A program made the translations under genes and the position numbers. A model generated the notes under the pieces. That model saw nothing but the letters and a program-made list of their open reading frames with translations, was not told the DNA's origin and searched no databases. Below, one piece after another: positions 4,942 through 61,704 of a DNA stretch of 64,000 nucleotides (positions are counted from its first letter, which is position 1; each line of letters opens with the position of its first letter). Source of the DNA: a virus (lineage: Duplodnaviria > Heunggongvirae > Uroviricota > Caudoviricetes); the IMG/VR virus record IMGVR_UViG_3300021431_000082, positions 8,047 to 72,046 of that record, one strand, 5' to 3'.

Positions 4942-4954
4942 AAGGAGAATGAAT

Positions 4955-7787: not shown

Positions 7788-8001
7788 TGGAGGTAAGGAC
7801 ATGGATTTCATTGAGTTCCTCGTAAAGACTATTAACGAAGAGGCGAACGATGCCGGTAAGTATATGCAATGGGCTGGAGCTTGCAGTGACAAGACATGCA
7901 AGGACACCCTAAATGAAATTGGAAATCAGGAACTAATGCATCAAAAGAAACTGATTGACCTGCTTGCTAATCTTGCGAAGAAGGGAGTTGATAAGGAGTG
8001 A
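7744..8001 (+). CDS. hypothetical protein
   Basis: ORF from the track. The stronger RBS (GGAGGTAAGGAC) precedes the internal ATG at 7801. Confidence 0.4.
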   Translation: MIAQPLQYKPISLNDGGKDMDFIEFLVKTINEEANDAGKYMQWAGACSDKTCKDTLNEIGNQELMHQKKLIDLLANLAKKGVDKE

Positions 8002-8360
8002 ATGAATTTTATCCTTATGGCGGAATAACCGCTCCTACCTTTCAGCAGCCACAGTCTCAACAGCCACAACCGATACAGAGTCGAATCCTCAATGTAAACG
8101 GAAGAGTAGGTGCAGAGAAGATCAATCTCGCTCCCGAATCTTCTATCTTTTTGCTCGACTCTAAAGACCCGGTAATATGGTTAGTCACGACTGACAGCGC
8201 TGCTACAAAAACAATCACGAAGATTAACGCAACTATTGAAGAGGAAAATACACAGGAAGCTACGGCCCCTGTAGTCACTGATAAACTTGAAGAAAAACTG
8301 GATGACGTAATCAAGCGGATTACCGATTTGGAAAAACGCTTTGATTCATGGGAGGCATAA
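7998..8360 (+). CDS. hypothetical protein
   Basis: 120-aa ORF with a Q/P-rich N-terminus. Its start overlaps the previous stop (GTGA). Confidence 0.4.
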   Translation: MNEFYPYGGITAPTFQQPQSQQPQPIQSRILNVNGRVGAEKINLAPESSIFLLDSKDPVIWLVTTDSAATKTITKINATIEEENTQEATAPVVTDKLEEKLDDVIKRITDLEKRFDSWEA

Positions 8361-8614
8361 TGAGTCTACAAGAACTTGCACTTCAAAACAGTCCACAGAT
8401 GAACGGGATTAATAATCTAATCAGTACAATAAAGGCGGCACAGAATCCTGCCGCTATGATCCAACAGTTAGTAATGAATAACCAGCAGGCAAAACAAGCC
8501 AAAGAGATCGCTGATCAATATGGTGGTTGGGAGCAGGCGGCTAGGGCCGTAGCTCAGCAAAAAGGGATTGACATTAATCTTGTTCTTAAACAACTTTCTG
8601 GAGAATATAAATGA
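8348..8614 (+). CDS. hypothetical protein
   Basis: 88-aa ORF, translationally coupled to its neighbours. Confidence 0.4.
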   Translation: MGGIMSLQELALQNSPQMNGINNLISTIKAAQNPAAMIQQLVMNNQQAKQAKEIADQYGGWEQAARAVAQQKGIDINLVLKQLSGEYK

Positions 8615-10259: not shown

Positions 10260-11243
10260 TCAAGCATATTTCCTGTATGAGTTTTTGACATGCTCATTTT
10301 CTATGAACACATATCGCATTGTCGTGTCGATCTTATCATGGCCAAGGATGGCAGCAACTTCCTGGATTGACATCCCATGATTTATCAAATTGGTCGCAAG
10401 CGTTCTTCTGAATCTATGAGGATGCACATTATCTACGCCGGCCTTCCTCGCTATGGTGTTTAGTCTGAATCTAACTCCGCCTGGTGTCAATCGCTCAGAA
10501 CCTTTACCAATGAACAGAGCTTCACTGTTATCGAGTCGTTCGGCGAAGTATCTCTTCAGCAACATAGCAGTCACATTATTAATATATACGACTCTCTCCT
10601 TCTTACCCTTACCGTGTACCTTACATTCAAGGTTTTGGAAATCAATATCATCTCTGTTTAGTTTGCACACCTCTCCTATTCTGCATCCGGTAGAGAGTAA
10701 GAATGATATGATAGTTCTATCTCTAACGCACTTGCAGCTTTCTTTAAGGCGCTCGATGTCAACGTCATTAAATGGTTTGCGAACTATTTTAGCGCATTTA
10801 ATCGTATTGATATTCGCGCATGGATTCGCATCTATCAGTCCTTCTTTTTGTAACCAACCGAAGAACGAACTGAAAACACTTCTCACACCCTCAATGGTGC
10901 TGTCAGATATTCCTCGCTCACGCATTCCCATTAAATAGCTACGGAGATGATAGATTGTGATCTTGCGTATAGGCACCTTCACGACTTCTAACATACGTCT
11001 GATAACGTATGCATATCTTTCTGTCGTCTTCGGTGATCTTCCTTCGATCTGCTTCGCCTCGATGAATGCAGATATAAGATCTTCTGAGTCGATAGAGTAT
11101 CCGTCATTGGAAGCTTCTATATTATATTGTGCTATTTGATCCAAAAGCATACTCATTACTGCATTGGTATTATTCACAGTTAATATGTTTCCGAGTTGTT
11201 TTTCGATATCACGCAACATCATCTGTTTCGCAGAGATAGACAT
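10260..11243 (-). CDS. tyrosine recombinase / integrase (XerC/XerD-like)
   Basis: Core-binding and catalytic motifs: ...TGCRIGEV..., HRFRRTLAT, LGHDKIDTTMRYV. Confidence 0.8.
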   Translation of the reverse strand: MSISAKQMMLRDIEKQLGNILTVNNTNAVMSMLLDQIAQYNIEASNDGYSIDSEDLISAFIEAKQIEGRSPKTTERYAYVIRRMLEVVKVPIRKITIYHLRSYLMGMRERGISDSTIEGVRSVFSSFFGWLQKEGLIDANPCANINTIKCAKIVRKPFNDVDIERLKESCKCVRDRTIISFLLSTGCRIGEVCKLNRDDIDFQNLECKVHGKGKKERVVYINNVTAMLLKRYFAERLDNSEALFIGKGSERLTPGGVRFRLNTIARKAGVDNVHPHRFRRTLATNLINHGMSIQEVAAILGHDKIDTTMRYVFIENEHVKNSYRKYA

Positions 11244-11714: not shown

Positions 11715-11752
11715 AATCGAACGTCAGGAAACCCCTCGTTTTTGGCTTAAAT
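11715..11752 (-). other. tRNA 3'-end-like segment (attP core candidate)
   Basis: T-arm-like GACGTTCGATTCCCGTC overlaps the 3' end of the integrase gene. Short repeats AATCGTAG/AATCGTGA lie just downstream at 11617-11655. Confidence 0.25.
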
Positions 11753-13112
11753 CAATGACTTTCGAGGGTTGTTCCATCGTAGTTGCTTCATCTTCTACGA
11801 TTTGGAACTCCGGTATCCGACTCAGAATGTCTGCTTTTGTATCGACACTCTTCCTGTTCCGGTGGTAGTGCTTCTCCGTGACAAGAATATTTGAGTGCCC
11901 CATCTGCGAGGTTACAAAGTTTTTGTCGACCCCGGCATCCAGTAATATCGAGCCATAAGTTTTGCGGATTTTGTGTGGAGATTTGCGAACGATGTGTAGT
12001 TCGTCGCATAGATTTCTCAGGCGGGTCCTAAACGTGTTGGTTGTCAGTCTGTGCCGCCCATTCATGAAAATGAATTCTTTGTCCGGGTTCAGGCTGTTGA
12101 CGGTGTCATAGAGCCAGCTGAATCCCCTGGGCAGGATGATCTTCCTGATGCCGGCGAATGTCTTCGGGGCATCCTTGATGTTGTAGTGGTACTTGCCGTC
12201 ATCGCCAAACTCTCTCGTCTCTGTCCGGTGAATCTCAATCATCCCATCCTTGAAGTCATCATGTTTTAATACCACTAGTTCCCCGATCCTCATACCGGTA
12301 ACAAACATCAGCATGATCCCAAGGTTTGTCTGGTCCTGGTGTTCAGCGAGGTAGAGCATGATGCGCTCATACTCAGCCTCGGAGAACACTTCCTCTTCGT
12401 CACTTCTTATGATGTGCTTGAAGTCATGGTCTGAAGAGTCCAGTTCGGAAATCACCAGGTCGATATTAAAGTTGATGAAACCTCTGCGCTTTGCACGTTT
12501 CAGCATCCCGCGCATGATGGTCTTAAGGTTCGAGAAAGCTTTTGATGTGAGGTTGTGCTTTGACGGCTGCTCCTCAAGGAAGTCCAGGATAGATTCGGGA
12601 GTGAGCTCGTTGATCTGCTTCTTACCAAAAGACTCAGCGAAGTAGCGCCGGTATTCCTGATGGTATCTAAGATACGTGGCAGCTGATATCTTCTTTAAGT
12701 CAAGCTTCCTTCTTGCCCACTCCTCGAATATCTCGTCTACCAGTGGATACTCTTCAAGGCTCCGGTAGTATTCCACGACAACATCTTCAACTTCTTTCTT
12801 CGTCTTCCTGTCTACAGTCCTCCTGCCCTTTACCGGGTCTGGAAGATAGGTACGCCATCTTCCCTTCGTCTGCCAGAACTTGGACTTGTGTTTCTCAAGT
12901 AGCCTTTTTCTCTCTGCTGTTTTCATCTGGTCTTGTAAATACGCCAGATCTATTATACCAGAGTCTATGGCTTTTTGTAAAATTTCCTGTGTTGTCATTG
13001 TTAGCGGTGAAGTAAGATGCCCAGAATACATGGGATCGTAATACAAAACATCGTTGCTCTCATTCGTTCCCCAAGCGACACAGCCAGGTTGTCTTCGCCT
13101 ATCTCTTCGCAA
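11724..13112 (-). CDS. tyrosine integrase (phage integrase family)
   Basis: TGMRIGELVVLK, HKIRKTYGS, MGHSNILVTEKHYH catalytic region. The true start may be an internal Met near 13000. Confidence 0.75.
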   Translation of the reverse strand: MRRDRRRQPGCVAWGTNESNDVLYYDPMYSGHLTSPLTMTTQEILQKAIDSGIIDLAYLQDQMKTAERKRLLEKHKSKFWQTKGRWRTYLPDPVKGRRTVDRKTKKEVEDVVVEYYRSLEEYPLVDEIFEEWARRKLDLKKISAATYLRYHQEYRRYFAESFGKKQINELTPESILDFLEEQPSKHNLTSKAFSNLKTIMRGMLKRAKRRGFINFNIDLVISELDSSDHDFKHIIRSDEEEVFSEAEYERIMLYLAEHQDQTNLGIMLMFVTGMRIGELVVLKHDDFKDGMIEIHRTETREFGDDGKYHYNIKDAPKTFAGIRKIILPRGFSWLYDTVNSLNPDKEFIFMNGRHRLTTNTFRTRLRNLCDELHIVRKSPHKIRKTYGSILLDAGVDKNFVTSQMGHSNILVTEKHYHRNRKSVDTKADILSRIPEFQIVEDEATTMEQPSKVIDLSQKRGVS

Positions 13113-23718: not shown

Positions 23719-23921
23719 TCTTTAATTCTTACTCCTATTGCAGTTCTGATTTTATCCACGCAGTTCGGGCAAATTGTTCTTACATCATTGCAAGATGACA
23801 GTTCAAATCCTTCACAGCAAATAACGCACATCCTTCCGTATGATTTCATTGGTACGGTTTCAATCTGCGTTATCTCAATACATTCAGGATTGTACCGTAG
23901 TTCATCCTTCATTACCTTCAC
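23706..23921 (-). CDS. zinc-ribbon protein
   Basis: CVICCEGF...CPNC. Confidence 0.35.
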   Translation of the reverse strand: MKVMKDELRYNPECIEITQIETVPMKSYGRMCVICCEGFELSSCNDVRTICPNCVDKIRTAIGVRIKEWTN

Positions 23922-24134
23922 CGTCCTTCCGTTTCAACTCACGGCGTATTTCTTTAAGTTCCATCTGCACATCTCTCATTACAAGCAGGATTAGAACAAT
24001 GAAAGAAAACATAAGACCTTCAAATGATTCAATCATGCCGTTCAACGTCCTTCATCCCGTGCGTGTATCCGACAGCATAGCCCATTATCCATGCAAACAT
24101 AGCGCATACCACTGTAATGTATTCAGCAATAAAT

Positions 24135-24401
24135 TCAGTCATGGTGGTCACCGTCCATTCTTGCACCGCACACTGGGCAGAACTTATACAACATATTCGC
24201 CGCACTTGCTTCTGAGACAAATCCACAAGCAGAGCAAATCCAAAAGCCGTATCCGCTTGGGTCTTCCTTCCAGTGTCCATGCACCACAGGGACAGCATCC
24301 ACGGTCTGCTGTTCGTCAATCAGCTTTCTTGCCACTACTTCTCCATCGTAAAATCGTGTGAGGTCTTTCTTCAGCGCATCTGCGTCAATCAGTCTTCCCA
24401 T
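24135..24401 (-). CDS. IDADAL-family zinc-ribbon protein
   Basis: MGRLIDADALKK...VHGHWK...CSACG...CPVCG, with a GAGGTG RBS. Confidence 0.45.
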   Translation of the reverse strand: MGRLIDADALKKDLTRFYDGEVVARKLIDEQQTVDAVPVVHGHWKEDPSGYGFWICSACGFVSEASAANMLYKFCPVCGARMDGDHHD

Positions 24402-24404
24402 TTT

Positions 24405-24710
24405 CTACACCTCCATACTTGCACCACACCACGGACAGTGCGGGTATAACAAGTAGACTTCTTCAATTTCATCGTATGGGGCTTCTTTCCCACAGCATGA
24501 ACAGATACGCCTGTATTCCTCTCCGTCTTCTGTCACTGCTTTCCACTGTCCATGCACCGCAGGGACAGCATCCACGGTATCCTCGTTATCCACGATAGCA
24601 TCAATGGCATCATTCCACCCTTGACGGTAGAACGCACCGTCACCGAATTTGTTACACAGAATTTCCGGGAACTTACGCTCTGGTAACGCATCAGCGTCAA
24701 TCATTCTCAT
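24405..24710 (-). CDS. IDADAL-family zinc-ribbon protein (terminates with TAG)
   Basis: MRMIDADAL...VHGQWK...CSCCG...CPWCG. It is the only gene seen ending in TAG, and the next paralog follows in frame. Confidence 0.45.
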   Translation of the reverse strand: MRMIDADALPERKFPEILCNKFGDGAFYRQGWNDAIDAIVDNEDTVDAVPAVHGQWKAVTEDGEEYRRICSCCGKEAPYDEIEEVYLLYPHCPWCGASMEV

Positions 24711-25012
24711 ATCTTACCCTCATAGTCGGGGATGTAAACATGTCCTGTGCTCATGTACCATCTATTGAAGACTTTCAGTGGCTGTATTCTAATGTGGCCT
24801 CTCCACCACAAAGTATTCCACCAATGCTTCAGCCATTCATTCGTATGAAAGTCGTACACATTACCATCATCTCGGTCGTACCACATAAAGTGGGGGATAC
24901 CTGGGACACCATCATTGATTACCGGTGGAATGAAGATAATCCTGATGCTATCCCAGTACCTCAGCTTGGCCTTAATGGCCTCGATGAGACAGTTAGAGTA
25001 ATACTCTCTCAT
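24707..25012 (-). CDS. hypothetical protein
   Basis: 101 aa, W-rich. Confidence 0.4.
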   Translation of the reverse strand: MREYYSNCLIEAIKAKLRYWDSIRIIFIPPVINDGVPGIPHFMWYDRDDGNVYDFHTNEWLKHWWNTLWWRGHIRIQPLKVFNRWYMSTGHVYIPDYEGKI

Positions 25013-25242
25013 GTTTTACTCTTTACTACCTCGCTGATCAAAATCCCGATAAACCACACAACAGTTCCGATCTTCCAGGTGAAAGTTTGACCGATTAACA
25101 TACAAATTAGATACACAATTCCACATGTCGCTGCCCAACTGATAGCCATACAGACGATCACAAACAGAATGGTCAGGACGATCAGACCGCCCCACTCTTT
25201 AAGAAACTCAATCACCGAACCCCTCCCTACTAAGCTTTTCAA
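25009..25242 (-). CDS. small membrane protein
   Basis: 77 aa with two TM helices. Confidence 0.4.
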   Translation of the reverse strand: MKSLVGRGSVIEFLKEWGGLIVLTILFVIVCMAISWAATCGIVYLICMLIGQTFTWKIGTVVWFIGILISEVVKSKT

Positions 25243-25426
25243 ACAGCATCCTCATAACCTCTCGCTGGACAAGGAAGTCATCCTTTGACGGGTTGACCTT
25301 GTCGATCCAATCAATGTGCCTCTTAACTTCTGCGTCCTGAATGCGAAGGTTGATTGCATTCTGCGTGATACGAATGATCTGAGTGATCACCAGGATTGTC
25401 ACCATGATCGTCAGATAAGTATTCAT
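25208..25426 (-). CDS. small membrane protein
   Basis: 72 aa with an N-terminal TM helix. Confidence 0.35.
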   Translation of the reverse strand: MNTYLTIMVTILVITQIIRITQNAINLRIQDAEVKRHIDWIDKVNPSKDDFLVQREVMRMLFEKLSREGFGD

Positions 25427-25677
25427 TCTTCAATCTCCTTGACTTCATATTTGTCTGAATCGAAAATGACAAGCTTCATATGACTACCATCTTTGTGATT
25501 GAGGTTATAACCTGCGAGCTTGTAATCCATGTATTCTTTCTGTGACATAAGATGAGCAGCCACGGCCCCAACAGCATCGTATGTCACATCTACTCGGTCG
25601 GTCGAAGACATCAGGCCATTCTTTAAAATCTTCCCGTAGTAAATTGTTCCAAAGCATCCACACACAAGTTTCTTCAT
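25423..25677 (-). CDS. hypothetical protein
   Basis: 84-aa ORF. Confidence 0.35.
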   Translation of the reverse strand: MKKLVCGCFGTIYYGKILKNGLMSSTDRVDVTYDAVGAVAAHLMSQKEYMDYKLAGYNLNHKDGSHMKLVIFDSDKYEVKEIEE

Positions 25678-25982
25678 TCGTGCCTCGCATCAATAATGAT
25701 TTCAGCTTTATCTAATGCCGACGTCAGTCTTCTGCAAAAATCCCTGTCCGCATCAGTAACCGCATAGCTCAAACACTTCTCAAGGAACTCATCCGCATCA
25801 ATGATACGTCCGTGATTAGTTACAATCGGACAAAGCTTATGCCGCTTATCATCAATAACCTGGTGGTACTTCAGTCCACATGAAATCGCACAATCATTGC
25901 ATGACTTCGGGACCTTTTTAAGCCGTAACAGAACCATCGTTACCCTCCTGAATTTCATCGCAGTGAATATTAAACCATCCAT
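25674..25982 (-). CDS. hypothetical protein
   Basis: 102 aa, Cys-rich. Confidence 0.35.
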   Translation of the reverse strand: MDGLIFTAMKFRRVTMVLLRLKKVPKSCNDCAISCGLKYHQVIDDKRHKLCPIVTNHGRIIDADEFLEKCLSYAVTDADRDFCRRLTSALDKAEIIIDARHE

Positions 25983-26175
25983 GCCAGTCTCCAGTTCTTT
26001 CGAAAACTTCCCAATTACTTATATCTGTGGCATACTTGACGGCTTCATACTGCTCTTTCGTAAGATAGACATAGCCGGCTATATCATCTTCAGCTGCCAA
26101 CGCAACCTCACACTTGTACTTTCTCATCTTCCTCCCACGGGTATCTAACCTTGTTGCCGCAGTCGGGGCAAACAT
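25918..26175 (-). CDS. hypothetical protein
   Basis: 85-aa ORF. Confidence 0.3.
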   Translation of the reverse strand: MFAPTAATRLDTRGRKMRKYKCEVALAAEDDIAGYVYLTKEQYEAVKYATDISNWEVFERTGDWHGWFNIHCDEIQEGNDGSVTA

Positions 26176-26362
26176 TCAGATAATCTCTACGGTGTTCAAT
26201 CCCGTATACATGTATGCCGCCGCCGCAAAATGGACAGCTCCATACCGGATCACCACCCGCTGTTACAAACCCAGGTGTTTTGACCCAAACGCCTTTAGAA
26301 TTCTCCGACACTCTGCGCACCATCCTTATCTGACACATAGAGAGCACACTGAAGATCACCAA
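26108..26362 (-). CDS. zinc-ribbon protein
   Basis: CPFCGGG...CPDCGNK. Confidence 0.35.
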   Translation of the reverse strand: MVIFSVLSMCQIRMVRRVSENSKGVWVKTPGFVTAGGDPVWSCPFCGGGIHVYGIEHRRDYLNVCPDCGNKVRYPWEEDEKVQV

Positions 26363-26993
26363 TCGGCTCGAAGTAATACCACTTACCGTCGATCTTCTCC
26401 CACTCAGTCACAGCATAACCAAGGCTGTTGAAGTAATACTTGTGCTTGTTGATGACTTTCCAAGTATTCCACAGGTACTGTTTACCATCTTCCGAGTACC
26501 ACCATCCACCGGCATCGTGAGACCATCCGATCCTGTACTTCGGCGTATCAAACAGTTCCTTCTCTTTATTGCGGCGGACTGTCAGTCCCTTCACATGGCG
26601 GTATGTTCCATCAGGATTCTTTACCCGGTCATGGTTTGGAATGTCAGCGGAGATTTCAGCGATTGTCCGCTTGCCGTTATCAACGAGCTTATCAATTGAC
26701 CCGATATTGTAAGCGTATGAGACCATGGCATCGAACTGATTCTGGTTGAAGCGGTAGTGATCCTGCCACTTTGAAACCTTCGGGACGTAACGCTTCTGGA
26801 TGGTCTTCTTGAGCCATTCATCCGCCTGAGCCTGGGTGATCGTCATACCTTCTTTGATCTCGCCGATGATATCCTTGTCGTAGTTGGTATTGCCATAGCC
26901 GATAGTCAGAACGCCGACGATGTCATAGTAGGCCGTCAGTTTACATCCTTCGAACTGCTTAATTAATTCGAGACCGGCATCTGATATTGTCAT
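26295..26993 (-). CDS. GH24 (T4-type) lysozyme with C-terminal cell-wall-binding repeats
   Basis: LIKQFEGCKLTAYYDIVGVLTIGYG lysozyme motif with catalytic Glu, plus C-terminal GWWYSEDGKQYLWN / KYYFNSLGYAV repeats. Confidence 0.65.
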   Translation of the reverse strand: MTISDAGLELIKQFEGCKLTAYYDIVGVLTIGYGNTNYDKDIIGEIKEGMTITQAQADEWLKKTIQKRYVPKVSKWQDHYRFNQNQFDAMVSYAYNIGSIDKLVDNGKRTIAEISADIPNHDRVKNPDGTYRHVKGLTVRRNKEKELFDTPKYRIGWSHDAGGWWYSEDGKQYLWNTWKVINKHKYYFNSLGYAVTEWEKIDGKWYYFEPIGDLQCALYVSDKDGAQSVGEF

Positions 26994-27325
26994 TCCTTAC
27001 CTCTCCTAATCATAAAAGCTGCAACACTAGGATTGTTGCCGATCTTAGTAACCAAATCCTGAGAAAATGAATGCCATTCCATCGAGGTATCAAATCCTTC
27101 CACTACATTGAGTCCGACATAGAACACCGTAAATACCAGTAATCCGTTCCTTACTATATCCCCGACCGAAATTACATCATTGAAAGGTGTGAGTTTATCG
27201 AGCCCGTTCTGATCAAAGACAAGAGAGTTAAAGCCTTTAGCCTTCCAAAGCCCATTGGTAATCGGTTCGTCCTCAAGTTCAATTACGTACTTCTTCCCCA
27301 TCAATTTCCTCCTTAAGGTTCTCAA
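26990..27325 (-). CDS. hypothetical protein
   Basis: 111-aa ORF. Confidence 0.4.
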   Translation of the reverse strand: MRTLRRKLMGKKYVIELEDEPITNGLWKAKGFNSLVFDQNGLDKLTPFNDVISVGDIVRNGLLVFTVFYVGLNVVEGFDTSMEWHSFSQDLVTKIGNNPSVAAFMIRRGKE

Positions 27326-27704
27326 GGTTTACAGTGTCGGTCACCTTATCTATCGGATAGAGAGAATCTTTAGTACAGGTATTGATCTCTCCGTCGGAGT
27401 TAATAACATTGCAGTAGATCGTGCCCTTCATAGAGATGATGATCCCCTTTCTTCTATATGGAAGATTCGCCTCATCAACATCATCATAGAAGACATGTCT
27501 GCCGACTGTGAGCTTACCTTCCATATCCTGTTGATCCAGATAAGCTATGGCGTCTGCATATGTAACCCCGGTAAACTTCTCGTTACTTCTAAGCTGCTTG
27601 TAAAGGTTCCACCCATATTCAGGCGTATCCTCATACACATATGCTTTGACTACCGTACAGTTAGTCACAAGATTGATATCGTCTGCTTCAATTATGTAAG
27701 TCAT
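27279..27704 (-). CDS. hypothetical protein
   Basis: 141-aa ORF. Confidence 0.4.
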   Translation of the reverse strand: MTYIIEADDINLVTNCTVVKAYVYEDTPEYGWNLYKQLRSNEKFTGVTYADAIAYLDQQDMEGKLTVGRHVFYDDVDEANLPYRRKGIIISMKGTIYCNVINSDGEINTCTKDSLYPIDKVTDTVNLENLKEEIDGEEVRN

Positions 27705-37822: not shown

Positions 37823-38063
37823 CTTCGCCTCGTCGGATTGTTTCTCGACTCACATTATTCTTCTTCGGTTTAGTGACCCACTTCTTTGTATAAGCGTGAA
37901 TCATTTCATCCTCATAGATGTCCGGGCACTCCTGCTTGCCGTTTCTTAGCGTCGGCAGTGTTGCGGTATATTCCGAAATCTCGGTAACATCCTCTCTAAA
38001 TCTGTCGGCCTGTTTGCGCTTGCTGTTGCTGTGCGGGAAATGTCTTAAACCGTGAAGTCTCAT
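37794..38063 (-). CDS. hypothetical protein
   Basis: 89-aa ORF. Confidence 0.35.
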   Translation of the reverse strand: MRLHGLRHFPHSNSKRKQADRFREDVTEISEYTATLPTLRNGKQECPDIYEDEMIHAYTKKWVTKPKKNNVSRETIRRGEDDIGDWDAE

Positions 38064-39094
38064 CTGTATTCCTCCAGAAATTTTACAATCTGTTTTGGTG
38101 TCAGCGCCATTATCATGTCCTTTGTTGTAAGGTTAGAATCAAGCGCTTTAAATCCAAAATACGAATACTTATCTTTCTTTATATAATTAGCAATGACTTT
38201 GCGCTGGTTGTTGTACTCTTCCTGGAGTCTTCGTGCTGTAAGAATCATAGCCTCGACTCCATGTTTTAGTTCGGCCAACTGCCACTGATAATAGCGTAGG
38301 AATCTCTCATGCTGTGGAAAGATTTCACACAGGGAGTTAATATCCTCTGGATGACTGGTAATTAACGCCACATATCTCTCAGGTGACAACACATGATTAT
38401 TGACCGACCGATGCATCTCCAGGTATTCAGGCGATTTGATTTTCACTCGGTTGAAGTTGCCATCAACTACGACAAATCCTTCTTTTTCTAATCCATCTTC
38501 ATTAAGATGTTCAACAGCACTCATGCAGTCATCAAGTGTTTTCAGTGGATATCTGGTCGGTTGTTCAACCCCAATATCACGGATTAAATTTTCACCGAAC
38601 ATATTCCCGATTGTACCGATGTGATATATTTTTGTGAATGGATATCTGATGACCACTTGTGTGTCAGGCGACACGAGTTCAAACAAGTATGTATTCATCT
38701 TGCTCATATCATGCCATCTGATCGAACTGTAATTCACAGCATTTACAAATAGGTTGTAAAATGTTTTACCGGTCTGAGTGTCAGCTTCACGAGCATCTAT
38801 TGCGGACATTGTAGAAACCTGCCACATATTAGATTCCCAGTTCCACCAGACTTTGATCAGACTCCCGTCAATCTTATCTTCAACAACAGCTGTATCCCAG
38901 TCAATTTTAGCGGCTTGTGGTTCTTGGATATTGAAGAACTTCTCAAATGGCCAGCAGACAACATCTAATGTATCACGGTTAATGATGATTCCTCGTGCTT
39001 CACATACAATAGGGTCATTGAAGTCGGCACCAATACCATACTTAAACAATGAGAGCCGGCCATCGTTTTTAACTTTGATGTTCTTCTGCTCCAT
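38060..39094 (-). CDS. ATP-dependent RNA ligase (Rnl1-like)
   Basis: Nucleotidyltransferase motif I EDKIDGSLIKV matches the T4 Rnl1-type KxDGSL lysine motif. Size is 344 aa. Confidence 0.55.
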   Translation of the reverse strand: MEQKNIKVKNDGRLSLFKYGIGADFNDPIVCEARGIIINRDTLDVVCWPFEKFFNIQEPQAAKIDWDTAVVEDKIDGSLIKVWWNWESNMWQVSTMSAIDAREADTQTGKTFYNLFVNAVNYSSIRWHDMSKMNTYLFELVSPDTQVVIRYPFTKIYHIGTIGNMFGENLIRDIGVEQPTRYPLKTLDDCMSAVEHLNEDGLEKEGFVVVDGNFNRVKIKSPEYLEMHRSVNNHVLSPERYVALITSHPEDINSLCEIFPQHERFLRYYQWQLAELKHGVEAMILTARRLQEEYNNQRKVIANYIKKDKYSYFGFKALDSNLTTKDMIMALTPKQIVKFLEEYR

Positions 39095-39783: not shown

Positions 39784-39975
39784 TCAAAATACCAACACCC
39801 CGGATATTTCTCTCTCGTATATACCACAGTCATCAGATCGTATTGTGTAATAACAAGAATCCTCTTTTATGATATAGCCGAAAGTCCCGATACCATGCTT
39901 AATAATGAAATAGCACCGTTTCCCAATGTTAGTGGGCTGCTTCGTCGCACTCATGTAGCCTCCATATATCACCAA
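39784..39975 (-). CDS. hypothetical small protein
   Basis: 63-aa ORF. Confidence 0.3.
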   Translation of the reverse strand: MVIYGGYMSATKQPTNIGKRCYFIIKHGIGTFGYIIKEDSCYYTIRSDDCGIYEREISGVLVF

Positions 39976-40783
39976 ACATCTGATTTCCCATCATATTATG
40001 ATCTTTATCCATCTTCTGAGGACTCTGCTTCCACTCCACATAGGGAGCCATATGCCAGTTGATCAGGTTACCAACATACAGATCGTTCATTGAAATCTCG
40101 TTGAACCCAGACAGGTAAAGATACGCACCAACATTGTGGTGATTATAGTAGTGAGCCTCACCATCATCAGAAATTGTCTGTGTAATACGCTTCCCAATGT
40201 CATGATAGAGAGCGGCACCTTGAACGAACTTACCGTAGTTATGCTCGAACGCAAACTTCTCAGCGGCATCCTGGTGCCCAATAAGACTCAGTGCATGACG
40301 CTTGCTCTTCTGATCCATGTCATCGGTCGGATACACATATGCTTCCTCATTCGGAACACATGCGATCTGATTCCAACCTTCGTAAAGCCACGGAGCATTG
40401 AAGCCGCCTATCATTCGCATAATTACATCCTTGCCAACCGGGTTCTCACGTTTTGAATCACGCTCGATACAAATATCAAGCGGTGTTGTAAACAGGACCG
40501 CAACTCTCAAAACAGGAAGCTGAGATACCTGCCGAAGGAACTCCATTCTCTTCTTGCGACTCATGTTCGTGGCATCATAAATTGCAGATTCACCACTGCT
40601 TAAAGCTTCGATGATTCTTTTATGAAGCTCCTCAAAAGTCTTGTTGTTATCTTCTTTCTTAGTGGGATCAAGTCCAAGCTCTTCTCTGATAGCATCTGAT
40701 GAGTAGATCTGAAATCCTGTTGTAGCTGCCCAGGTAGATTTACCGGAGCCAGGTAACCCGATGGTCATGTATAAGGTGTTCAA
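39929..40783 (-). CDS. polynucleotide 5'-kinase fused to HD-domain phosphohydrolase (Pnk-HD end-healing enzyme)
   Basis: N-terminal P-loop TIGLPGSGKSTWA as in T4 Pnkp, and C-terminal H...HD...D HD-domain motifs (ALYHDIGK). Confidence 0.55.
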   Translation of the reverse strand: MNTLYMTIGLPGSGKSTWAATTGFQIYSSDAIREELGLDPTKKEDNNKTFEELHKRIIEALSSGESAIYDATNMSRKKRMEFLRQVSQLPVLRVAVLFTTPLDICIERDSKRENPVGKDVIMRMIGGFNAPWLYEGWNQIACVPNEEAYVYPTDDMDQKSKRHALSLIGHQDAAEKFAFEHNYGKFVQGAALYHDIGKRITQTISDDGEAHYYNHHNVGAYLYLSGFNEISMNDLYVGNLINWHMAPYVEWKQSPQKMDKDHNMMGNQMFGDIWRLHECDEAAH

Positions 40784-41952: not shown

Positions 41953-42032
41953 TGCACCCAGCGAGATTTGAACTCGCACGGTTTCCCATAAGATCCTAAG
42001 TCTTACGTGTCTGCCAATTCCACCATGGGCGC
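41953..42032 (-). tRNA. tRNA-Leu (anticodon TAG)
   Basis: Cloverleaf read by hand: acceptor GCGCCCA, anticodon loop CTTAGGA, long variable arm, T-arm GCGAGTTCAAATCTCGC. Confidence 0.6.
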
Positions 42033-42113
42033 TTTTGCATCTTATGGAGAGATGCTGACCCACCTTATTCCTTTTTGAGCGGTGATGAATAAAGTGCAAG
42101 AACGTCCACCGCA

Positions 42114-42184
42114 TCGGGACGGCAGGAGTCGAACCTGCAAACGCCCTTTGCTCAGGGTCTCTTTCCCAATTAAATTACGTCCCG
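42114..42184 (-). tRNA. tRNA (anticodon arm irregular; Cys-GCA or Leu-GAG possible)
   Basis: Acceptor CGGGACG/CGTCCCG and T-arm GCAGGTTCGACTCCTGC are clear. The anticodon stem has mismatches. Confidence 0.4.
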
Positions 42185-42189
42185 CATTG

Positions 42190-42372
42190 TTAGTATTCAT
42201 AGAGAGAAACAACTCTCTCTATTACATTGTCTTCATCGTCAAGCACTTCTTCCTCGTAGCACCCTAATATTTCATCCTGTTCATCTACGCCGCATCTTCC
42301 ATGTGAGTACAACAAGACACGCATATCATCATCGTATTTACTCAGTTCTGAAATTAGCTCTTTGACTTTCAT
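42190..42372 (-). CDS. acidic small protein embedded in tRNA array
   Basis: AAAGGAG RBS then MKVKELISELSKYDDD..., very acidic. The track ORF 42190..42450 is trimmed because its N-terminus overlaps tRNA-Asn. Confidence 0.35.
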   Translation of the reverse strand: MKVKELISELSKYDDDMRVLLYSHGRCGVDEQDEILGCYEEEVLDDEDNVIERVVSLYEY

Positions 42373-42392
42373 GTATTCTCCTTTCATTAGCG

Positions 42393-42467
42393 CGGGAACA
42401 GAAGGACTTGAACCTTCGACGGCGCGGTTAACAGCCGCGTGCTCTACCAACTGAGCTATGCTCCCAT
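42393..42467 (-). tRNA. tRNA-Asn (anticodon GTT)
   Basis: GGGAGCA-TA-GCTCAGTTGGTAGAGC-A-CGCGG-CTGTTAA-CCGCG...GAAGGTTCAAGTCCTTC-TGTTCCC-G. Confidence 0.65.
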
Positions 42468-42643
42468 GGCTGGGTTAAGGTCCCCAGAACCGCACATCCC
42501 GCATATTGGCCTGACTATTTGCTTCCGCCTCAGAGTAAAGGTCTTCGGTGTCCAACTGAGTATCAGGTAGCTACTCTGACAGTTGTCTCAGTTAAGTCAG
42601 CTTTCGTCACTGGGTAAGCGGATAATTTGCTCTCTACCCCGCA

Positions 42644-42733
42644 TCGGGACGGCGAGATTTGAACTCGCATCACAAGTAGGTGACGAACCCCTTGTTGTTT
42701 ACCGTCAAAGCTTTACTTTTAAGCTACGTCCCG
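42644..42733 (-). tRNA. aberrant tRNA-like gene (about 90 nt; expanded anticodon region)
   Basis: Acceptor CGGGACG/CGTCCCG-A is identical to the 42114 tRNA. The D-arm is GCTT..AAGC and the T-arm GCGAGTTCAAATCTCGC. The stem TGACG..CGTCA encloses a 17-nt loop. Confidence 0.3.
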
Positions 42734-42996
42734 TGGTGCACGACAGTAGGATAATCAGTCGTGCCCTGGTTGATTATTTTTAGTCGCCACACAGCATATT
42801 TTATATCCAACGACATCCGGCTTTTCTGAGTACCTAGGATCATGGCAAGCCTTCAGCTCCGGAGAGTGGAGTGGAATCGGTAGCGTTCTATCCACCATAT
42901 GCATCCGATTGTAATTTATCTGCCACCCAAATATGTCATCGACATATCAACGAGGATTTACGCATCAATTTCCAACCCTCAAACAACCACTCTAAA

Positions 42997-43125
42997 GCGT
43001 ACGGGTGGGAGTCGAACCCACTATGACCTTTCCCATTGCGTATTGGTACTCAGTTTGTTTCTTAGGAGCGTCCGCTTCGGATGATTGCATTACGCACTGC
43101 AACTTCTCTATAGCTCCACCGTACG
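42997..43125 (-). tRNA. atypical long tRNA-like element (about 129 nt)
   Basis: Perfect T-arm GTGGGTTCGACTCCCAC plus acceptor 3' CCGTACG. The complementary CGTACGG-TG-GAGC 5' end lies 120 nt upstream, with an unexplained insert between them. Confidence 0.25.
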
Positions 43126-43280
43126 ATGAAGGAATCTTTGACTGTTTAACGACACCCTTACCATGATGTCGGGTCTTGTCCTACTGTCGGGTCACGCCCG
43201 TAGGTTAGCTGAGAGCCGTCATCTGACTCAGCACAATCATCTCCGATCCTGCCCGGAGAACCCCGTCATACCAATCCTCT

Positions 43281-43310
43281 ACCAACGAGTCGGATTCGAA
43301 CCGACACTTG
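43281..43310 (-). other. orphan tRNA 3' fragment (T-arm + acceptor half)
   Basis: GTCGGTTCGAATCCGAC-TCGTTGG with no matching 5' half nearby. Confidence 0.3.
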
Positions 43311-43397
43311 CGCGAACGGATGGATTTGAACCATCGGAACGATTGCTCGTTCGTCGATTTTCAAGACCGATGCAATAAGCCACTCTGCCACGTTCGC
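43311..43397 (-). tRNA. tRNA-Ser (anticodon TGA), type II
   Basis: GCGAACG acceptor, D-arm GCAGAGTGGCTTATTGC, loop CTTGAAA, long variable arm ACGAGCAATCGT, discriminator G. Confidence 0.6.
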
Positions 43398-43400
43398 AAA

Positions 43401-43471
43401 TTGCAGGCTGTGGAGTTGAACCACACTATCCAGATAATGAGTCTGGCAAGTAACCGCTACTTTAGCCTGCG
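43401..43471 (-). tRNA. tRNA-Met (anticodon CAT; C1-A72 mismatch, initiator-like)
   Basis: Anticodon stem CCAGA/TCTGG with loop CTCATTA, and T-arm TGTGGTTCAACTCCACA. Confidence 0.55.
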
Positions 43472-43674
43472 ATATTCAAGCGGCTTTTTAATTGCGAACT
43501 TGGGGAAGCCACATAAACCCCGGCTCATTTAATTTCTCCTGATGCCGTAGCACCGGATATGCCGCAGTGACATAACTGCGGATTTGCAGGATTTTTTACA
43601 GCCTGTTTCATCCTGCCCAGCAAATACAGGTATCCACCGTCTCTTAGCCAACCTTACTCGTCAGTAAGGATCAA

Positions 43675-43747
43675 AGCTCCCGAAGAGATTTGAACTCTTG
43701 CTTCAGCATTACAAGTGCCGCACTCTATCCAGCTGAGCTACAGGAGC
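43675..43747 (-). tRNA. tRNA-Thr (anticodon TGT)
   Basis: GCTCCTG-TA-GCTCAGCTGGATAGAGT-G-CGGCA-CTTGTAA-TGCTG...AAGAGTTCAAATCTCTT-CGGGAGC-T. Confidence 0.6.
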
Positions 43748-43750
43748 TTA

Positions 43751-43837
43751 CGTGGAGTGAGGGCTTCGAACCCCCGAATCGGTCGCCCGATTATCAGATT
43801 TAGAGTCTGACGCAATCAACCGCTCTGCCAACTCCAC
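43751..43837 (-). tRNA. amber suppressor tRNA (anticodon CTA), Ser-type type II architecture
   Basis: GTGGAGT-TG-GCAGAGCGGTTGATTGC-G-TCAGA-CTCTAAA-TCTGA, long variable arm AATCGGGCGACCGATT, T-arm GGGGGTTCGAAGCCCTC-ACTCCAC, discriminator G. The D-arm closely resembles the adjacent tRNA-Ser. Confidence 0.6.
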
Positions 43838-43865
43838 TGGGTGGCCACTCGTTACACCACCCTAA

Positions 43866-43938
43866 TCGGAGTGACAGGTCACGATCCTGCGGCATCCAGC
43901 TCCCAAAACTGGCGCTCTACCAACTGAGCTACACCCCG
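43866..43938 (-). tRNA. tRNA-Pro (anticodon TGG)
   Basis: CGGGGTG-TA-GCTCAGTTGGTAGAGC-G-CCAGT-TTTGGGA-GCTGG. The T-loop is unusual (ATCGTGA). Confidence 0.5.
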
Positions 43939-44227
43939 AAATTTGGAAAGGAGGTTCGTCCTCGAAGTTCTTACTTCTTAACAGCATGTTTCATGCTAAG
44001 GACTACCAAATAAGAGTTACACGATAGTCGCAAAAAAATCAGCGCCCAAAAAAACGACCATCGATAAAATCATTTTTACCGGCTGTCACGGTCACATGTT
44101 AGTGACTTGAATTCCACATCAAGGTCAATTGCTAATGAGATTTCTCATAAAGTCTATTGCTTCTGGGTTTATCTATGATTTGATTATGGAATGATAAGTT
44201 TATGATGATTTCATTAACAACCTTGAG

Positions 44228-44299
44228 CTGGGGTTGGCAGTTTCGAACTGCCGATACAGGATTCAAAGTCCTGTGCCTTAACCACTTGGCGAAACCCCA
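44228..44299 (-). tRNA. tRNA-Gln (anticodon TTG)
   Basis: TGGGGTT acceptor, anticodon stem CAGGA/TCCTG with loop CTTTGAA. Confidence 0.55.
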
Positions 44300-44316
44300 T
44301 TGGGTATCGCACCTTC

Positions 44317-44389
44317 ACCTCACCATTGGACTTGAACCACATCTGCGGACTACCCATTCCGCCGCTCTACCGTATTGAGCTAGGCGAGG
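44317..44389 (-). tRNA. atypical tRNA-like gene with apparent 8-nt anticodon loop
   Basis: Acceptor CCTCGCC/GGTGAGG, D-arm GCTC..GAGC. Stem GCGGA/TCCGC encloses ATGGGTAG, and the T-stem is weak. Confidence 0.3.
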
Positions 44390-44401
44390 ATTCAGTGCGA
44401 A

Positions 44402-44475
44402 TGGATCTTCATGGACTCGAACCATGGCACTTCCGGTTATGAGCCGGAGGCTCTCACCAACTGAGCTAAAGATCC
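44402..44475 (-). tRNA. tRNA-Met/Ile2 (anticodon CAT)
   Basis: GGATCTT-TA-GCTCAGTTGGTGAGAGC-C-TCCGG-CTCATAA-CCGGA...CATGGTTCGAGTCCATG-AAGATCC-A. Confidence 0.6.
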
Positions 44476-44690
44476 AGGCTGAATAGTGACCGGATATTCA
44501 GTTGCTCCTAAAGGTTTCAATTATATTTTTTGTTAATTAATATTCCACTGCCTACCTGCCTCGCAGGTTACCAAAGGTCATACGCAACCAAACCTGAACT
44601 GTTAGTCGAGGATTTTAAAAAGCTTTATTCTTTTTGGGAAGAACGGTCCCTCTTTAATCCTTCAACTTTACTCAAATTAAACTTTGAGCT

Positions 44691-58399: not shown

Positions 58400-59485
58400 T
58401 TACATTTCATCTATCCCTTCAACTATCTTCTGCTCCATTCTGATTTTGTTGATAGCCCGTACAACAGTGTCTGCATCTTCAGCGGAGATACCGTTCCCTA
58501 CCGAGATGCGAAGACTTCTGTTGCACTCTTCATCCGTAAGCCCCATAGCCTTGAGCACATGACTCGGAGTCGCTGACGAAGCATTACAGGCTGACCCAGC
58601 GCTTAAGTAAATCTCCATCTTACTGAGCGACTGGATCATTGTGTCATTGTGAACATCCAACCGAAAGTTGATGATGTTCTTATATGGATCATCGTGGCAG
58701 CTGGTTCCGTTGATGACAGCGCCACATTCTGACACCAACCTATCCTCAAACCAGCCGAGGTTAACCGGCTGTGGGTTAGCATGTAACTTCGTGGCTTCAG
58801 CAAGCCCTACGATAAGCGGAATCGGCTCCGTTCCAGACCTAAGTCCGAACTCCTGGCCACCACCAAACATTGATGGGTACAATCCTTTTCGAAATTTTCG
58901 ATTCGCAAAGAGGAATCCAATTCCCTTCGGCCCATTGAACTTATGCCCACTAACACTCATTGCGTCAACATGTGTAATATCAATCGGCCTATGCCCAAAT
59001 GCCTGAACGGCATCGGTATGGAATAAGATGCTCCGTTCATGGCAAAGCTTACCGATTAGATCATACGGCTGAACAACTCCTGTTTCATTGTTAACAGTCA
59101 TAAGAGAGACAAGATTAGTGAATTTGTTTAGCTTGTATAGAAAATCCTGGATGTCTATTACACCGTTGGAGCATGTTTTGAATCTCCACTCGCTGTATGT
59201 CAATACAGCCTTATGTTCAATATCGCTTATTAAATCCTCATCAGAAGTAGATAACATCGCCATATTGTCAGACTCCGTTCCACCAGATGTAAATATGATC
59301 TCATCCGGGAAACAGCCAACTACCTCTGCGATCTCGCTTCTGGCTTTTTCCATTGCCTCTTTCGCAATCTTACCAAACTTATGGGTTGAACCGGCGTTCC
59401 CGTAGTTCTCAGTAAACCACGGAAGCATCGCTTCGACTACCCTCGGGTCTGTCTGCGTTGTAGCGGCATTATCTAAATAGATCAT
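58400..59485 (-). CDS. cysteine desulfurase (IscS/NifS-like, PLP-dependent)
   Basis: 361 aa with PLP-lysine motif SGHKFNGPKGIGFL and active-site Cys in SAGSACN. Confidence 0.7.
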   Translation of the reverse strand: MIYLDNAATTQTDPRVVEAMLPWFTENYGNAGSTHKFGKIAKEAMEKARSEIAEVVGCFPDEIIFTSGGTESDNMAMLSTSDEDLISDIEHKAVLTYSEWRFKTCSNGVIDIQDFLYKLNKFTNLVSLMTVNNETGVVQPYDLIGKLCHERSILFHTDAVQAFGHRPIDITHVDAMSVSGHKFNGPKGIGFLFANRKFRKGLYPSMFGGGQEFGLRSGTEPIPLIVGLAEATKLHANPQPVNLGWFEDRLVSECGAVINGTSCHDDPYKNIINFRLDVHNDTMIQSLSKMEIYLSAGSACNASSATPSHVLKAMGLTDEECNRSLRISVGNGISAEDADTVVRAINKIRMEQKIVEGIDEM

Positions 59486-60753: not shown

Positions 60754-61704
60754 TCAAGCATAGAATCCGTTGGCTCCTTTGTTAGCTTTTGCACTCGCTT
60801 CGTTCTTATTCTGTAAATAAATTTCAGTTGTGTGAGGCGATGCGTGTCCGAGTAACTGCTGAATGTCATAGACAGAATAACCGTCCTGAGAAAGCAGCGT
60901 AGCTGTTGACGCTCTGATCTTATGCGGAGTGATGTGCTTACCGGTGACTTCGCAACGCCTGGTAATCATGGCTTCAATCATATACCTGGTCATCCGCTCT
61001 CCCTTATCGCTCACGAATAATGCGTTGGTTTTGATACGAGGGGCAAGATAGTTGCGCTCCTTCAGGTAATCGGCGGTAAGCTTCAGGACGCTGTCAGAAG
61101 GATAGAAAGTCCTAATCTTGTTTTCCTTCTCAATAACCTTCATCTCCTTCCTGTCGAAGTTGATACTGTCAACATTCAGTTCAAACAGGGCGTTGAGTCG
61201 CATTGCGTTGGTCAGGAAGAGAACAAAGATCAGCTCGTCTCGCTTGGCATACTTGTCGCCAGACATTCTGATTTCCCTAACGACAGCATCGATCTCTTTT
61301 TTGGTAAGATAGGTGCGCTTCACCTGGTCAGACGGTTTGGCTGCCGGCCTATCCATCTCTTCCATAGGATTCTCAGTGATGCGCTTTGTCTTCCGAAGAT
61401 AACTGAAGTATTTCTTCAGACCGGAATACACAGCAACCATCCACGACCCGGATGTCTTGCCGCCGTTTGACTTCTCGTCCATATAAGTCAGGACATCGTC
61501 GTACGTCACCTCGCTTACCGGCTTATCGAGCCAGTTCATAAATGCAATTACGATCTGAAGATAGGACTTCTGCGTCATAAAGGACTTGGTCTTACCGGAG
61601 TGGATCATATCAGAATAGAATCCACGGACCTCAGCCGGCTGTCCTTCCAACATCTCAGCCATTTTCGCTTTCGCTTTCATGATGCTTTCTTCTCTTCCAG
61701 TCAT
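60754..61704 (-). CDS. tyrosine recombinase (XerD-like)
   Basis: HKIRASTATLL, LLGHASPHTTEIYL catalytic motifs. Confidence 0.75.
   Translation of the reverse strand: MTGREESIMKAKAKMAEMLEGQPAEVRGFYSDMIHSGKTKSFMTQKSYLQIVIAFMNWLDKPVSEVTYDDVLTYMDEKSNGGKTSGSWMVAVYSGLKKYFSYLRKTKRITENPMEEMDRPAAKPSDQVKRTYLTKKEIDAVVREIRMSGDKYAKRDELIFVLFLTNAMRLNALFELNVDSINFDRKEMKVIEKENKIRTFYPSDSVLKLTADYLKERNYLAPRIKTNALFVSDKGERMTRYMIEAMITRRCEVTGKHITPHKIRASTATLLSQDGYSVYDIQQLLGHASPHTTEIYLQNKNEASAKANKGANGFYA

Follow-up and report, generated by a model that had tools for sequence, protein, structure and literature searches.

A probable serine-identity amber suppressor tRNA in a gut phage whose late-gene TAG codons align with serine

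Phage-encoded suppressor transfer RNAs (tRNAs) that recode stop codons are known, and in all the published cases that we found the recoded TAG stands for glutamine (Gln): the phage recoding papers either assign Gln or just apply genetic code 15 (Peters 2022 PMC9523058; Yutin 2021 PMC7886860; Babkin 2023 PMC10607447; the theta-ribozyme paper; the 2026 jumbo-phage survey), and for the crAss-like phages the assignment was validated by proteomics (Peters 2022 PMC9523058). Here we describe a tRNA gene with anticodon CUA at positions 43751-43837 of a 64,000-nt stretch of a Caudoviricetes genome (IMG/VR record IMGVR_UViG_3300021431_000082, positions 8,047 to 72,046; the whole stretch is called the window below), for which an original prediction had proposed serine-type identity features and had suggested that TAG may mean serine (Ser) in this phage. 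The results showed that this gene very probably encodes a serine-identity amber suppressor, tRNA-Ser(CUA), which would insert Ser at UAG in the late genes.

The window phage is similar to the code-15 gut phages (crAss-like, Lak, Phass-1) in that a large genome from the gut encodes its own CUA tRNA, TAG is found in late, structural and lysis genes, the early genes keep the standard code, and TAG is avoided as a stop. A key difference is the meaning of the codon, which is Gln in those phages, whereas it aligns with Ser in the window phage. The suppressors differ as well, the tRNA-Sup-CTA of Phass-1 being a Gln-like class I tRNA of 74 nt with U1:A72 and G73, in comparison to a class II tRNA of 87 nt with G73 in the window. 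The gating of late genes would then follow the logic proposed for code-15 phages, with serine replacing glutamine.

Serine insertion at UAG is familiar from the laboratory, where E. coli supD (serU, tRNA-Ser CUA) and the phage-encoded psu1+ of T4 place Ser at this codon. These suppressors have in common with the window tRNA that a tRNA-Ser with a CUA anticodon is still charged by seryl-tRNA synthetase (SerRS), a charging that is proposed for the window tRNA; they differ in being single laboratory-selected mutations in genomes where TAG is still a stop, whereas the window suppressor is a conserved natural gene in a co-evolved genome that has purged TAG from its stops and uses it at about 5 per 1,000 late codons. 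Serine has also captured CUG in the Candida/CTG clade and AGR in animal mitochondria, by the same route of a serine-identity tRNA that gains a new anticodon and is charged by an anticodon-blind SerRS, but these are sense codons in eukaryotic nuclear or organellar genomes and involve neither a stop codon nor a virus. Other reassignments likewise made the stop codon TAG a sense codon, for leucine or alanine in green-algal mitochondria, for pyrrolysine (Pyl) in archaea and bacteria, and, together with TAA, for glutamine, tyrosine or glutamate in ciliates. None of these, to our knowledge, gives Ser, and we know of no NCBI translation table in which TAG is Ser. A full-text literature search, with Ivanova et al. 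2014 and the final Borges version outside its reach, found no report of TAG read as Ser in a phage, and the word 'serine' is absent from the Borges 2021 preprint, Peters 2022 (PMC9523058), Yutin 2021 (PMC7886860) and the Phass-1 paper (Babkin 2023 PMC10607447), as it is from the theta-ribozyme paper and the 2026 jumbo-phage survey.

In the ARAGORN output, the boundaries of this minus-strand tRNA are exactly 43751-43837 and its anticodon is cta, which alone accounts for the label 'Pyl'. The Rfam model RF00005 scored 52.0 bits against a gathering score of 29 (E 2.7e-8 in a whole-window search), and its alignment spans model positions 1-71, which is the full length, with a 16-nt insertion in the variable region and CUCUAAA in the anticodon loop; the covariance model thus folds the sequence as a complete tRNA. 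The original prediction gave no strand, and the sequences that it quoted are those of the minus strand, where the gene, 87 nt with no encoded CCA, reads GTGGAGT-T-G-GCAG-AGCGGTTGA-TTGC-G-TCAGA-CTCTAAA-TCTGA-TA-ATCGG-GCGA-CCGAT-TC-GGGGG-TTCGAAG-CCCTC-ACTCCAC-G. The acceptor stem of 7 bp (GUGGAGU/ACUCCAC) is followed by U8 and G9, the D arm (GCAG-AGCGGUUGA-UUGC) has a 4-bp stem and a 9-nt loop, and the anticodon arm (UCAGA-CUCUAAA-UCUGA) has a 5-bp stem and a canonical 7-nt loop with U33 and a purine at position 37. The variable region (UA-AUCGG-GCGA-CCGAU-UC) is 18 nt long and forms a 5-bp stem with a GCGA tetraloop and a short 3' linker, and the T arm (GGGGG-UUCGAAG-CCCUC, 5-bp stem) is followed, after the acceptor stem, by G73 as the discriminator. 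The CUA anticodon in a CTCTAAA loop on the stem TCAGA/TCTGA, the long variable arm and the discriminator G73, all of which had been predicted, were therefore recovered on the minus strand.

To this fold we can add the evidence from related sequences. In an alignment of the window tRNA with 9 related CUA tRNAs and 4 tRNA-Ser(UGA), 95.5% of the helix cells were paired and 19 of 26 pairs, covering five helices, had changed on both sides, including all five pairs of the variable arm, while none of 500 shuffles equalled the observed pairing and covariation. The cloverleaf at 43751-43837 is far beyond chance, and the tRNA is under selection, as it is conserved with compensatory changes. The window sequence was furthermore identical across five independent assemblies from different samples.

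SerRS selects its tRNAs by their long variable arm and acceptor end and ignores the anticodon, while leucyl- and tyrosyl-tRNA synthetases (LeuRS and TyrRS) require A73, which class II tRNAs for leucine (Leu) and tyrosine (Tyr) carry. The terminal base in the class II tRNAs of the examined loci was G in 9 of 12 Ser tRNAs and A in all three Leu and both Tyr tRNAs, and G73 was present in 9 of 10 related CUA tRNAs. The core of the window tRNA has G15 and C48 (the Levitt pair) and C11:G24; G15:C48 and C11:G24 mark a Ser-type core by a rule from E. coli identity work, and the phage's own tRNA-Leu(UAG) has A15, U48 and A73. The D-loop AGCGGUUGA is shared with E. coli tRNA-Ser. The neighbouring tRNA-Ser(UGA) (Table 1) matches the CUA tRNA at 14 of 17 D-arm positions, near identity as predicted, with 63% identity overall, and is probably its paralogue or represents its donor type. 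With its class II form, G73, G15:C48 and 7/5 acceptor/T geometry, the CUA tRNA is of serine-type architecture, in agreement with the serine-type features first proposed for it.

Two other identities were considered and rejected. Bacterial selenocysteine (Sec) tRNAs have an 8-bp acceptor and a 5-bp T stem, a 6-bp D stem and anticodon UCA, whereas the window tRNA has 7/5 bp, a D stem of 4 bp and anticodon CUA. A tRNA-Pyl has a 3-nt variable loop, a 5-nt D-loop and a 6-bp anticodon stem and comes with pylS/pylBCD genes, in comparison to the 18-nt variable region, 9-nt D-loop and 5-bp anticodon stem found here, and no Pyl genes were seen among the window ORFs (open reading frames) that were scanned.

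TAG is a sense codon confined to the late genes of this phage. In-frame TAG occurs 30 times in 5,870 late codons in comparison to none in 13,312 early codons. As a stop codon it is used by none of the 14 late genes, all of which end with TAA or TGA, and by one of the 72 early ORFs, itself doubtful, so that at most 1 of 86 genes overall is terminated by TAG. A crude comparison of ORF lengths under alternative codes did not discriminate, and frame-specific inspection was used instead. The 2,531-codon tail-fibre ORF could be followed in full on L001, a locus that overlaps the window without mismatch and extends 8.6 kb upstream; it contains 16 TAG and no TAA or TGA, and the fibre gene that precedes it contains 5 TAGs. 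Gene calling with code 11 leaves a 621-bp gap at 3989-4663, where a 224-codon gene is found when TAG is read through, and the variant L002 of the phrog_16490 gene at 3366-3929 carries a third TAG at the position of a Ser codon (TCT) in the window. The late regions L041, L122/L123 and L124/L125 are likewise TAG-recoded, L041 with 39 in-frame TAGs, and the public gene calls for L041 and L122-L125 do not re-translate under code 11, because TAG has been rendered as Q in the products.

The distribution of TAG bears on the idea that the CUA tRNA is a bystander which, for instance, reads through TAG stops of the host as part of a takeover or anti-defence function, the late TAGs being bypassed in some other way. 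Yutin et al. (PMC7886860) have indeed suggested that phage suppressors may, as a side effect, cause read-through of host genes. However, 30 in-frame TAGs in essential late genes demand an efficient decoder and a matching one lies in the same genome, TAG has been purged from the phage's own stops, in line with a suppressor that works on phage messages, and the residue predicted from the tRNA architecture is the one found in the alignments described below, which makes this explanation exceedingly improbable.

The giant fibre allows an internal comparison of repeats to be made. It contains five-fold (…ITGGATTITSSNLTASRALVSN.SGKVAVSAVTSTELGYLDGVTSAIQTQLNGK) and three-fold (…DVGLGNVDNKSSATIRGEITSSNVTTALGYTPV.K.GD) repeats with five TAGs inside, and the residues that face these TAGs in the paralogous repeats are Ser in 14 of 16 cases, with one Gly and one Asp. 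For the TAG at 741-743, the paralogous repeats and homologues together gave S 8, D 2, Q 1 and G 1 (one-letter code here and below). Among fibre homologues from 120 database proteins, counted with a flank-identity filter, the residues opposite TAG were S 208, T 58, G 40, A 34, D 23 and Q 12, so the outcome that would speak for Gln at TAG was not seen, and an empirical substitution model applied to these homologues ranked S best at -22.4 and N second at -30.2. Nearly all of the Q's came from one public entry, P0002. Re-translation of its gene under code 11 fails to give the database product, and these Q's are an artefact of code 15, because that gene has an in-frame TAG shown as Q. At conserved fibre-repeat positions Ser was found in 101 of 125 cases, and the sole Q is again a code-15 artefact. 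Reading the fibre TAG positions directly from DNA (tblastn, 114 IMG/VR loci) gave S 379, T 132, D 72 and Q 8. Ser also came first at four of the five TAG positions of a second fibre protein, the two leading residues being S 16 and A 13 at position 1, D 18 and N 7 at position 2, S 21 and G 16 at position 3, S 36 and Q 16 at position 4, and S 97 and A 11 at position 5; part of the Q count at position 4 corresponds to TAG in the source DNA.

Polymorphisms among close relatives were by themselves ambiguous, with a few each of TAG↔TCG, CAG and AAG, and became decisive because five genomes and a codon-level control were added. Codon columns were compared over five late regions (the window as reference, L002, L041, L122 and L124). 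TAG was present in 73 columns, 63 of which also had a sense partner, and the majority partner in these 63 was Ser in 33, Ala in 7, Thr in 6, and Gln, Asn and Glu in 3 each. The column log-likelihoods were -139.2 for S, -209.7 for A, -220.1 for T and -247.2 for Q, in comparison to a Ser background of 8%. As a control, the same method returned the true amino acid for 11 of 11 sense codons treated as unknown. The Ser partner codons of TAG were TCT 18, TCA 12, TCG 7, AGT 4, TCC 4 and AGC 3; mutational proximity cannot explain the Ser signal, since all six Ser codons partner TAG and most are two to three changes away. The partner profile of TAG resembles those of TCG and TCC, unlike those of CAG or CAA. 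These results indicate that TAG behaves in evolution as a serine codon, in line with the suggestion that it may mean Ser and not Gln.

The same columns weigh on the possibility that the phage follows ordinary code 15, with a Gln-type suppressor supplied by the rest of the genome or by the host and the Ser-like CUA tRNA being minor or non-functional. The published TAG-recoded phages that we found are all assigned Gln, the public gene calls for the window lineage use it too, a few TAG↔CAG/CAA exchanges occur among close relatives, and our inspection covered about half of the genome. Against this, Gln was the majority partner in 3 columns only in comparison to 33 for Ser, with the difference in log-likelihood given above, and the true Gln codons treated in the same way showed a wholly different profile, Q being the partner in 53 of 109 columns for CAG and 55 of 93 for CAA. 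The fibre repeats with their lone artefactual Q, the presence of AGT and AGC beyond mutational proximity, and the selection seen in the compensatory changes of the CUA tRNA speak against it as well, and we consider ordinary code 15 very unlikely.

Several results nevertheless weigh against a serine-inserting suppressor. Some TAG sites do pair with CAG or CAA in close relatives (Gln majority in 3 of 63 columns, 5 in a recount), and these pairs, expected from C↔T transitions, yet fit a small Gln component too. The Ser fraction of TAG is 44-52% in comparison to 63% for TCG, and the signal is weak at about 50% divergence, with S leading at 4 of 17 sites as the majority residue. With regard to the tRNA, the comparison of identity elements bore out the prediction in part, the discriminator and core positions favouring Ser over Leu and Tyr, while overall similarity did not separate them (0.66-0.69 to Ser vs 0.64-0.67 to Leu/Tyr). 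The acceptor determinants of E. coli SerRS are G2:C71 and A3:U70, and G2:C71 is absent from the CUA tRNA, which has U2:A71 and G3:C70; the E. coli acceptor rule seems to fail for the phage's Ser tRNAs generally, because its own tRNA-Ser(UGA) has C2:G71 and likewise does without G2:C71. Furthermore, about 72.6 kb of the 151.8-kb scaffold were inspected and a second suppressor tRNA could lie elsewhere, and 16 UAGs in one gene would have to escape release factor 1 (RF1) of the host.

Some of these points would also suit a Ser-derived scaffold that is not simply charged with Ser, whether through another synthetase, through conversion on the tRNA (Sec or Sep/Cys-like), or through ambiguous decoding, in which a second residue is inserted besides Ser or partial termination serves regulation. 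The identity of the CUA tRNA is deduced from its architecture, its 2:71 pair is U:A and not the E. coli Ser determinant, RF1 may compete for the codon, the early block has a class-V aminotransferase/cysteine-desulfurase-like gene at 58400-59485, and in the lineage with 84-nt CUA tRNAs of shorter variable arms (L033, L040) TAG aligns about equally with S, T and Q. However, the partners of TAG in the window phage (S, then A and T) match those of ordinary Ser codons, and Cys, Sec-like or bulky residues never partner it; the geometry is 7/5 and not the 8/5 of bacterial tRNA-Sec; G73 speaks against LeuRS and TyrRS under the general A73 rule; and a simpler role for the NifS-like gene is to provide NrdD/NrdG with Fe-S clusters. 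A differently charged scaffold is unnecessary because the alignments place Ser at TAG, and we regard it as unlikely.

For the tRNA-Ser(CUA) that we favour, we infer that the CUA tRNA itself decodes TAG, that host SerRS charges it, and that late-gene gating is regulatory; an ORF scan, together with the ORF sizes, revealed neither a SerRS nor a release-factor gene in the window. The tRNA would be transcribed together with its cluster amid the standard-code early and replication genes, receive its CCA from the host, and be charged with serine by host SerRS, which would read the variable arm and acceptor end and not the anticodon. The charged tRNA would then put Ser at UAG. The phage has purged TAG from its stops and early genes. 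Serine would have TAG as its seventh codon, used in late genes alone, and synthesis of the late proteins (tail fibres, tail proteins and the lysis region) could not run to completion before the phage's own tRNA is available. One TAG lies in the context ...AVSAVT[TAG]TELGYLDGVTSAIQ..., and if TAG is Ser, TAG-spanning peptides would read AVSAVT-S-TELGYLDGVTSAIQTQINGK and GEITS-S-NVTTALGYTPVNK.

With the D arm and anticodon loop of the window tRNA as a search pattern, 9 IMG/VR contigs were found to carry class II CUA tRNAs (84-90 nt), and in three cases the tRNA adjoins a tRNA-Ser(UGA). The pattern also matched seven bacterial genome records, in most of which a class II CUA tRNA was confirmed or read. 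The bacterial matches were Anaerovibrio, Vicinamibacterales and Saccharimonadia, the latter two as metagenome-assembled genomes (L127-L130, L132). The cultured strain Anaerovibrio slackiae WCA-693-APC-5D-A (NZ_VUNR01000005.1) carries a prophage 100% identical to IMG/VR L036; this prophage is UViG 2936390555_000003 (77 kb), has in-frame TAGs in the terminase and other genes, and may serve as a culturable system for a direct test, with a related tRNA and not that of the window. In the lineage of L033, L035 and L040, TAG sites are few and their partners S, T and Q about equal, and a capsid-like protein (L033 3623-4618, L035 6066-7067, L040 4641-5639) shows a reciprocal TAG↔CAG swap at two nearby positions. 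This capsid protein shows a distant relationship to that of the Phass-1, SPbeta and EF1 group; only distant homologues of it were found, none covering the TAG-bearing N-terminus.

Two further groups came from the polymerase and tail genes. L018, L020, L024 and L029, whose DnaE is 53-58% identical to that of the window, encode a class I CUA tRNA with a U1·C72 mismatch, G73, a tryptophan (Trp)-like D-loop (TAACGGTAG) and an anticodon loop CUCUAAA that is one base off the CUCCAAA of Trp tRNAs; it could be Trp- or Gln-derived, and the DnaE-flanking loci of these contigs have almost no informative TAG sites. A profile of tail protein A5 retrieved 65 IMG/VR loci of a sister lineage (L148-L212, e.g. 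L149, L173, L194, L196; contigs such as _116811 and _127336 of IMG/VR 3300045988), whose version of this protein is about 50% identical and whose late genes contain in-frame TAG about once per 1,000 codons. In four representatives the 16 informative columns gave W 11, Y 2, Q 2 and N 1, with a log-likelihood of -27.5 for W in comparison to -73.5 for Y and TAG paired overwhelmingly with TGG, and a context tally over all 65 loci gave W in 107 of 149. This suggests that the sister lineage reads TAG as Trp, and the column method does not simply return Ser, since it returned Trp here. No suppressor tRNA was found in the 65 loci examined; the 75-nt class I CUA tRNA is not present in them and occurs only in the other contigs. 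On balance we lean slightly towards UAG being a free codon in a family of gut phages of about 110-150 kb that has been captured for different amino acids, Ser in the window phage and Trp in the sister lineage, neither of them Gln.

The choice of Gln is fixed in gene callers, in the NCBI taxonomy ('Caudoviricetes code 15 clade') and in protein databases. If TAG is Ser in the window lineage, this would be a viral genetic code outside the NCBI tables as we know them, the public entries P0002, P0121, P0130 and P0144 (from L041 and L122-L125) would be wrong at each TAG, with Q in place of Ser, and 16 residues of the 2,531-residue fibre would be mistranslated in databases. The meaning of a recoded stop would then need to be inferred per lineage from suppressor identity and alignments, and the phage would provide a natural, co-evolved example of the anticodon-blind-synthetase route on which laboratory suppressors (supD, psu1+) and code engineering have long relied. 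The term 'TAG-recoded phage' may conceal several genetic codes, all translated as Gln by current pipelines.

Table 1. Positions of the genes and tRNAs discussed (window coordinates unless a locus is named)
Feature	Position	Strand	Remarks
Class II tRNA, anticodon CUA, proposed tRNA-Ser(CUA) amber suppressor	43751-43837	minus	ARAGORN, Rfam, covariation, 5 assemblies
tRNA-Ser(UGA), 87 nt	43311-43397	minus	D-arm, variable-arm layout and G73 in common with CUA tRNA
tRNA cluster, 11 members	41953-44476	minus	on early/replication-gene strand; ARAGORN (ten tRNAs) and Rfam
tRNA with 8-nt anticodon loop	44317-44389	minus	Rfam 36 bits
tRNA-like element, 90 nt	42644-42733	minus	Rfam only, 45 bits
Tail-fibre gene, last 460 of 2,531 codons	3-1385	plus	starts upstream, L001 2397-9992; in-frame TAG 741-743
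Late block	1394-10098	plus	tail-fibre proteins, endolysin 5533-6675, tail fibre 8611-10098; only window part with in-frame TAG
Late gene, 187 codons, phrog_16490	3366-3929	plus	in-frame TAG 3393-3395, 3549-3551
Late gene, 224 codons, probable receptor-binding or tail protein	3989-4663	plus	six TAGs: 4121, 4265, 4334, 4412, 4484, 4631
Late gene, 186 codons, lysis region	6675-7235	plus	TAG 6936-6938, kept in relative L041
Early, replication and lysogeny block	10260-63978	minus	integrases, NrdD/G, SSB, dUTPase, RNA ligase, kinase, DnaE, primase, helicase
T4 Rnl1-type RNA ligase (PF09511)	38060-39094	minus	adjoins tRNA cluster
AAA_33 kinase	39929-40783	minus	adjoins tRNA cluster
Tyrosine recombinase/integrase genes	10260-11243; 11724-13112; 60754-61704	minus	three in 64 kb
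Class-V aminotransferase/cysteine-desulfurase-like gene	58400-59485	minus	PF00266, E 2.6e-61; early block
Class II CUA tRNA, G73, encoded CCA	L126 4517-4604		Anaerovibrio prophage; followed by tRNA-Lys
Class II G73 CUA tRNAs, 84-88 nt	L033 1461-1544; L035 3799-3886; L040 2350-2433		shorter variable arms
Class I CUA tRNA, 75 nt	L018 2734-2808; L020 2215-2289; L024 2260-2334; L029 2734-2808		relatives via DnaE

Genes for tail fibres, an endolysin and a DnaE-type polymerase mark the window as phage DNA, and it lies in the ENA scaffold SHIW14-1_SAMN02144230-S005_METAG-scaffold_115 (ERZ28612959) of 151,831 bp; the phage is a gut phage of about 152 kb, with a host probably among the Bacillota (Firmicutes), and occurs in stool samples (BioSamples SAMN02144230 and SAMN02144231, runs SRR873597 and SRR873599). 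No close relative was found among GenBank phage records, and polymerases from phages of Clostridioides, Thomasclavelia and Bacillus share no more than 47% identity with the window polymerase. Clostridioides phage-plasmids are among the nearest relatives by polymerase, and with three tyrosine recombinase/integrase genes in the window the element may be temperate or a phage-plasmid.

The members of the tRNA cluster are Leu-UAG, Asn, a tRNA-like element, Ser-UGA, Met, Thr, CUA, Pro, Gln-UUG, a tRNA with an 8-nt anticodon loop, and Met, and the same cluster is kept in variant contigs. The tRNA with the 8-nt loop (AUGGGUAG), to which ARAGORN gave the four-base anticodon 'gggt', is conserved in the variant contigs L140 and L142 and may decode quadruplets or act in a frameshift-type manner, or be an unusual tRNA for Thr or Pro. 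The tRNA-like element has good acceptor, D and T arms with 36 nt in place of a 17-nt anticodon arm, and could be a tRNA with an insertion or intron, or a degenerate tRNA. The RNA ligase and the kinase beside the cluster resemble the tRNA-repair pair Pnkp/Rnl1 of T4 and by analogy would guard the phage tRNAs from anticodon nucleases of the host. The PF00266 gene probably supplies Fe-S clusters for the anaerobic ribonucleotide reductase of the phage (NrdD/NrdG); enzymes of this type of fold also act on aminoacyl-tRNAs. In the relative L041, a reverse transcriptase gene (RVT_1, 26094-27386) with 4 in-frame TAGs adjoins a 667-residue fibre-like protein (23799-25802), and the two together look like a diversity-generating retroelement, while the counterpart of the reverse-transcriptase site in the window is occupied by the tyrosine recombinase at 10260-11243.

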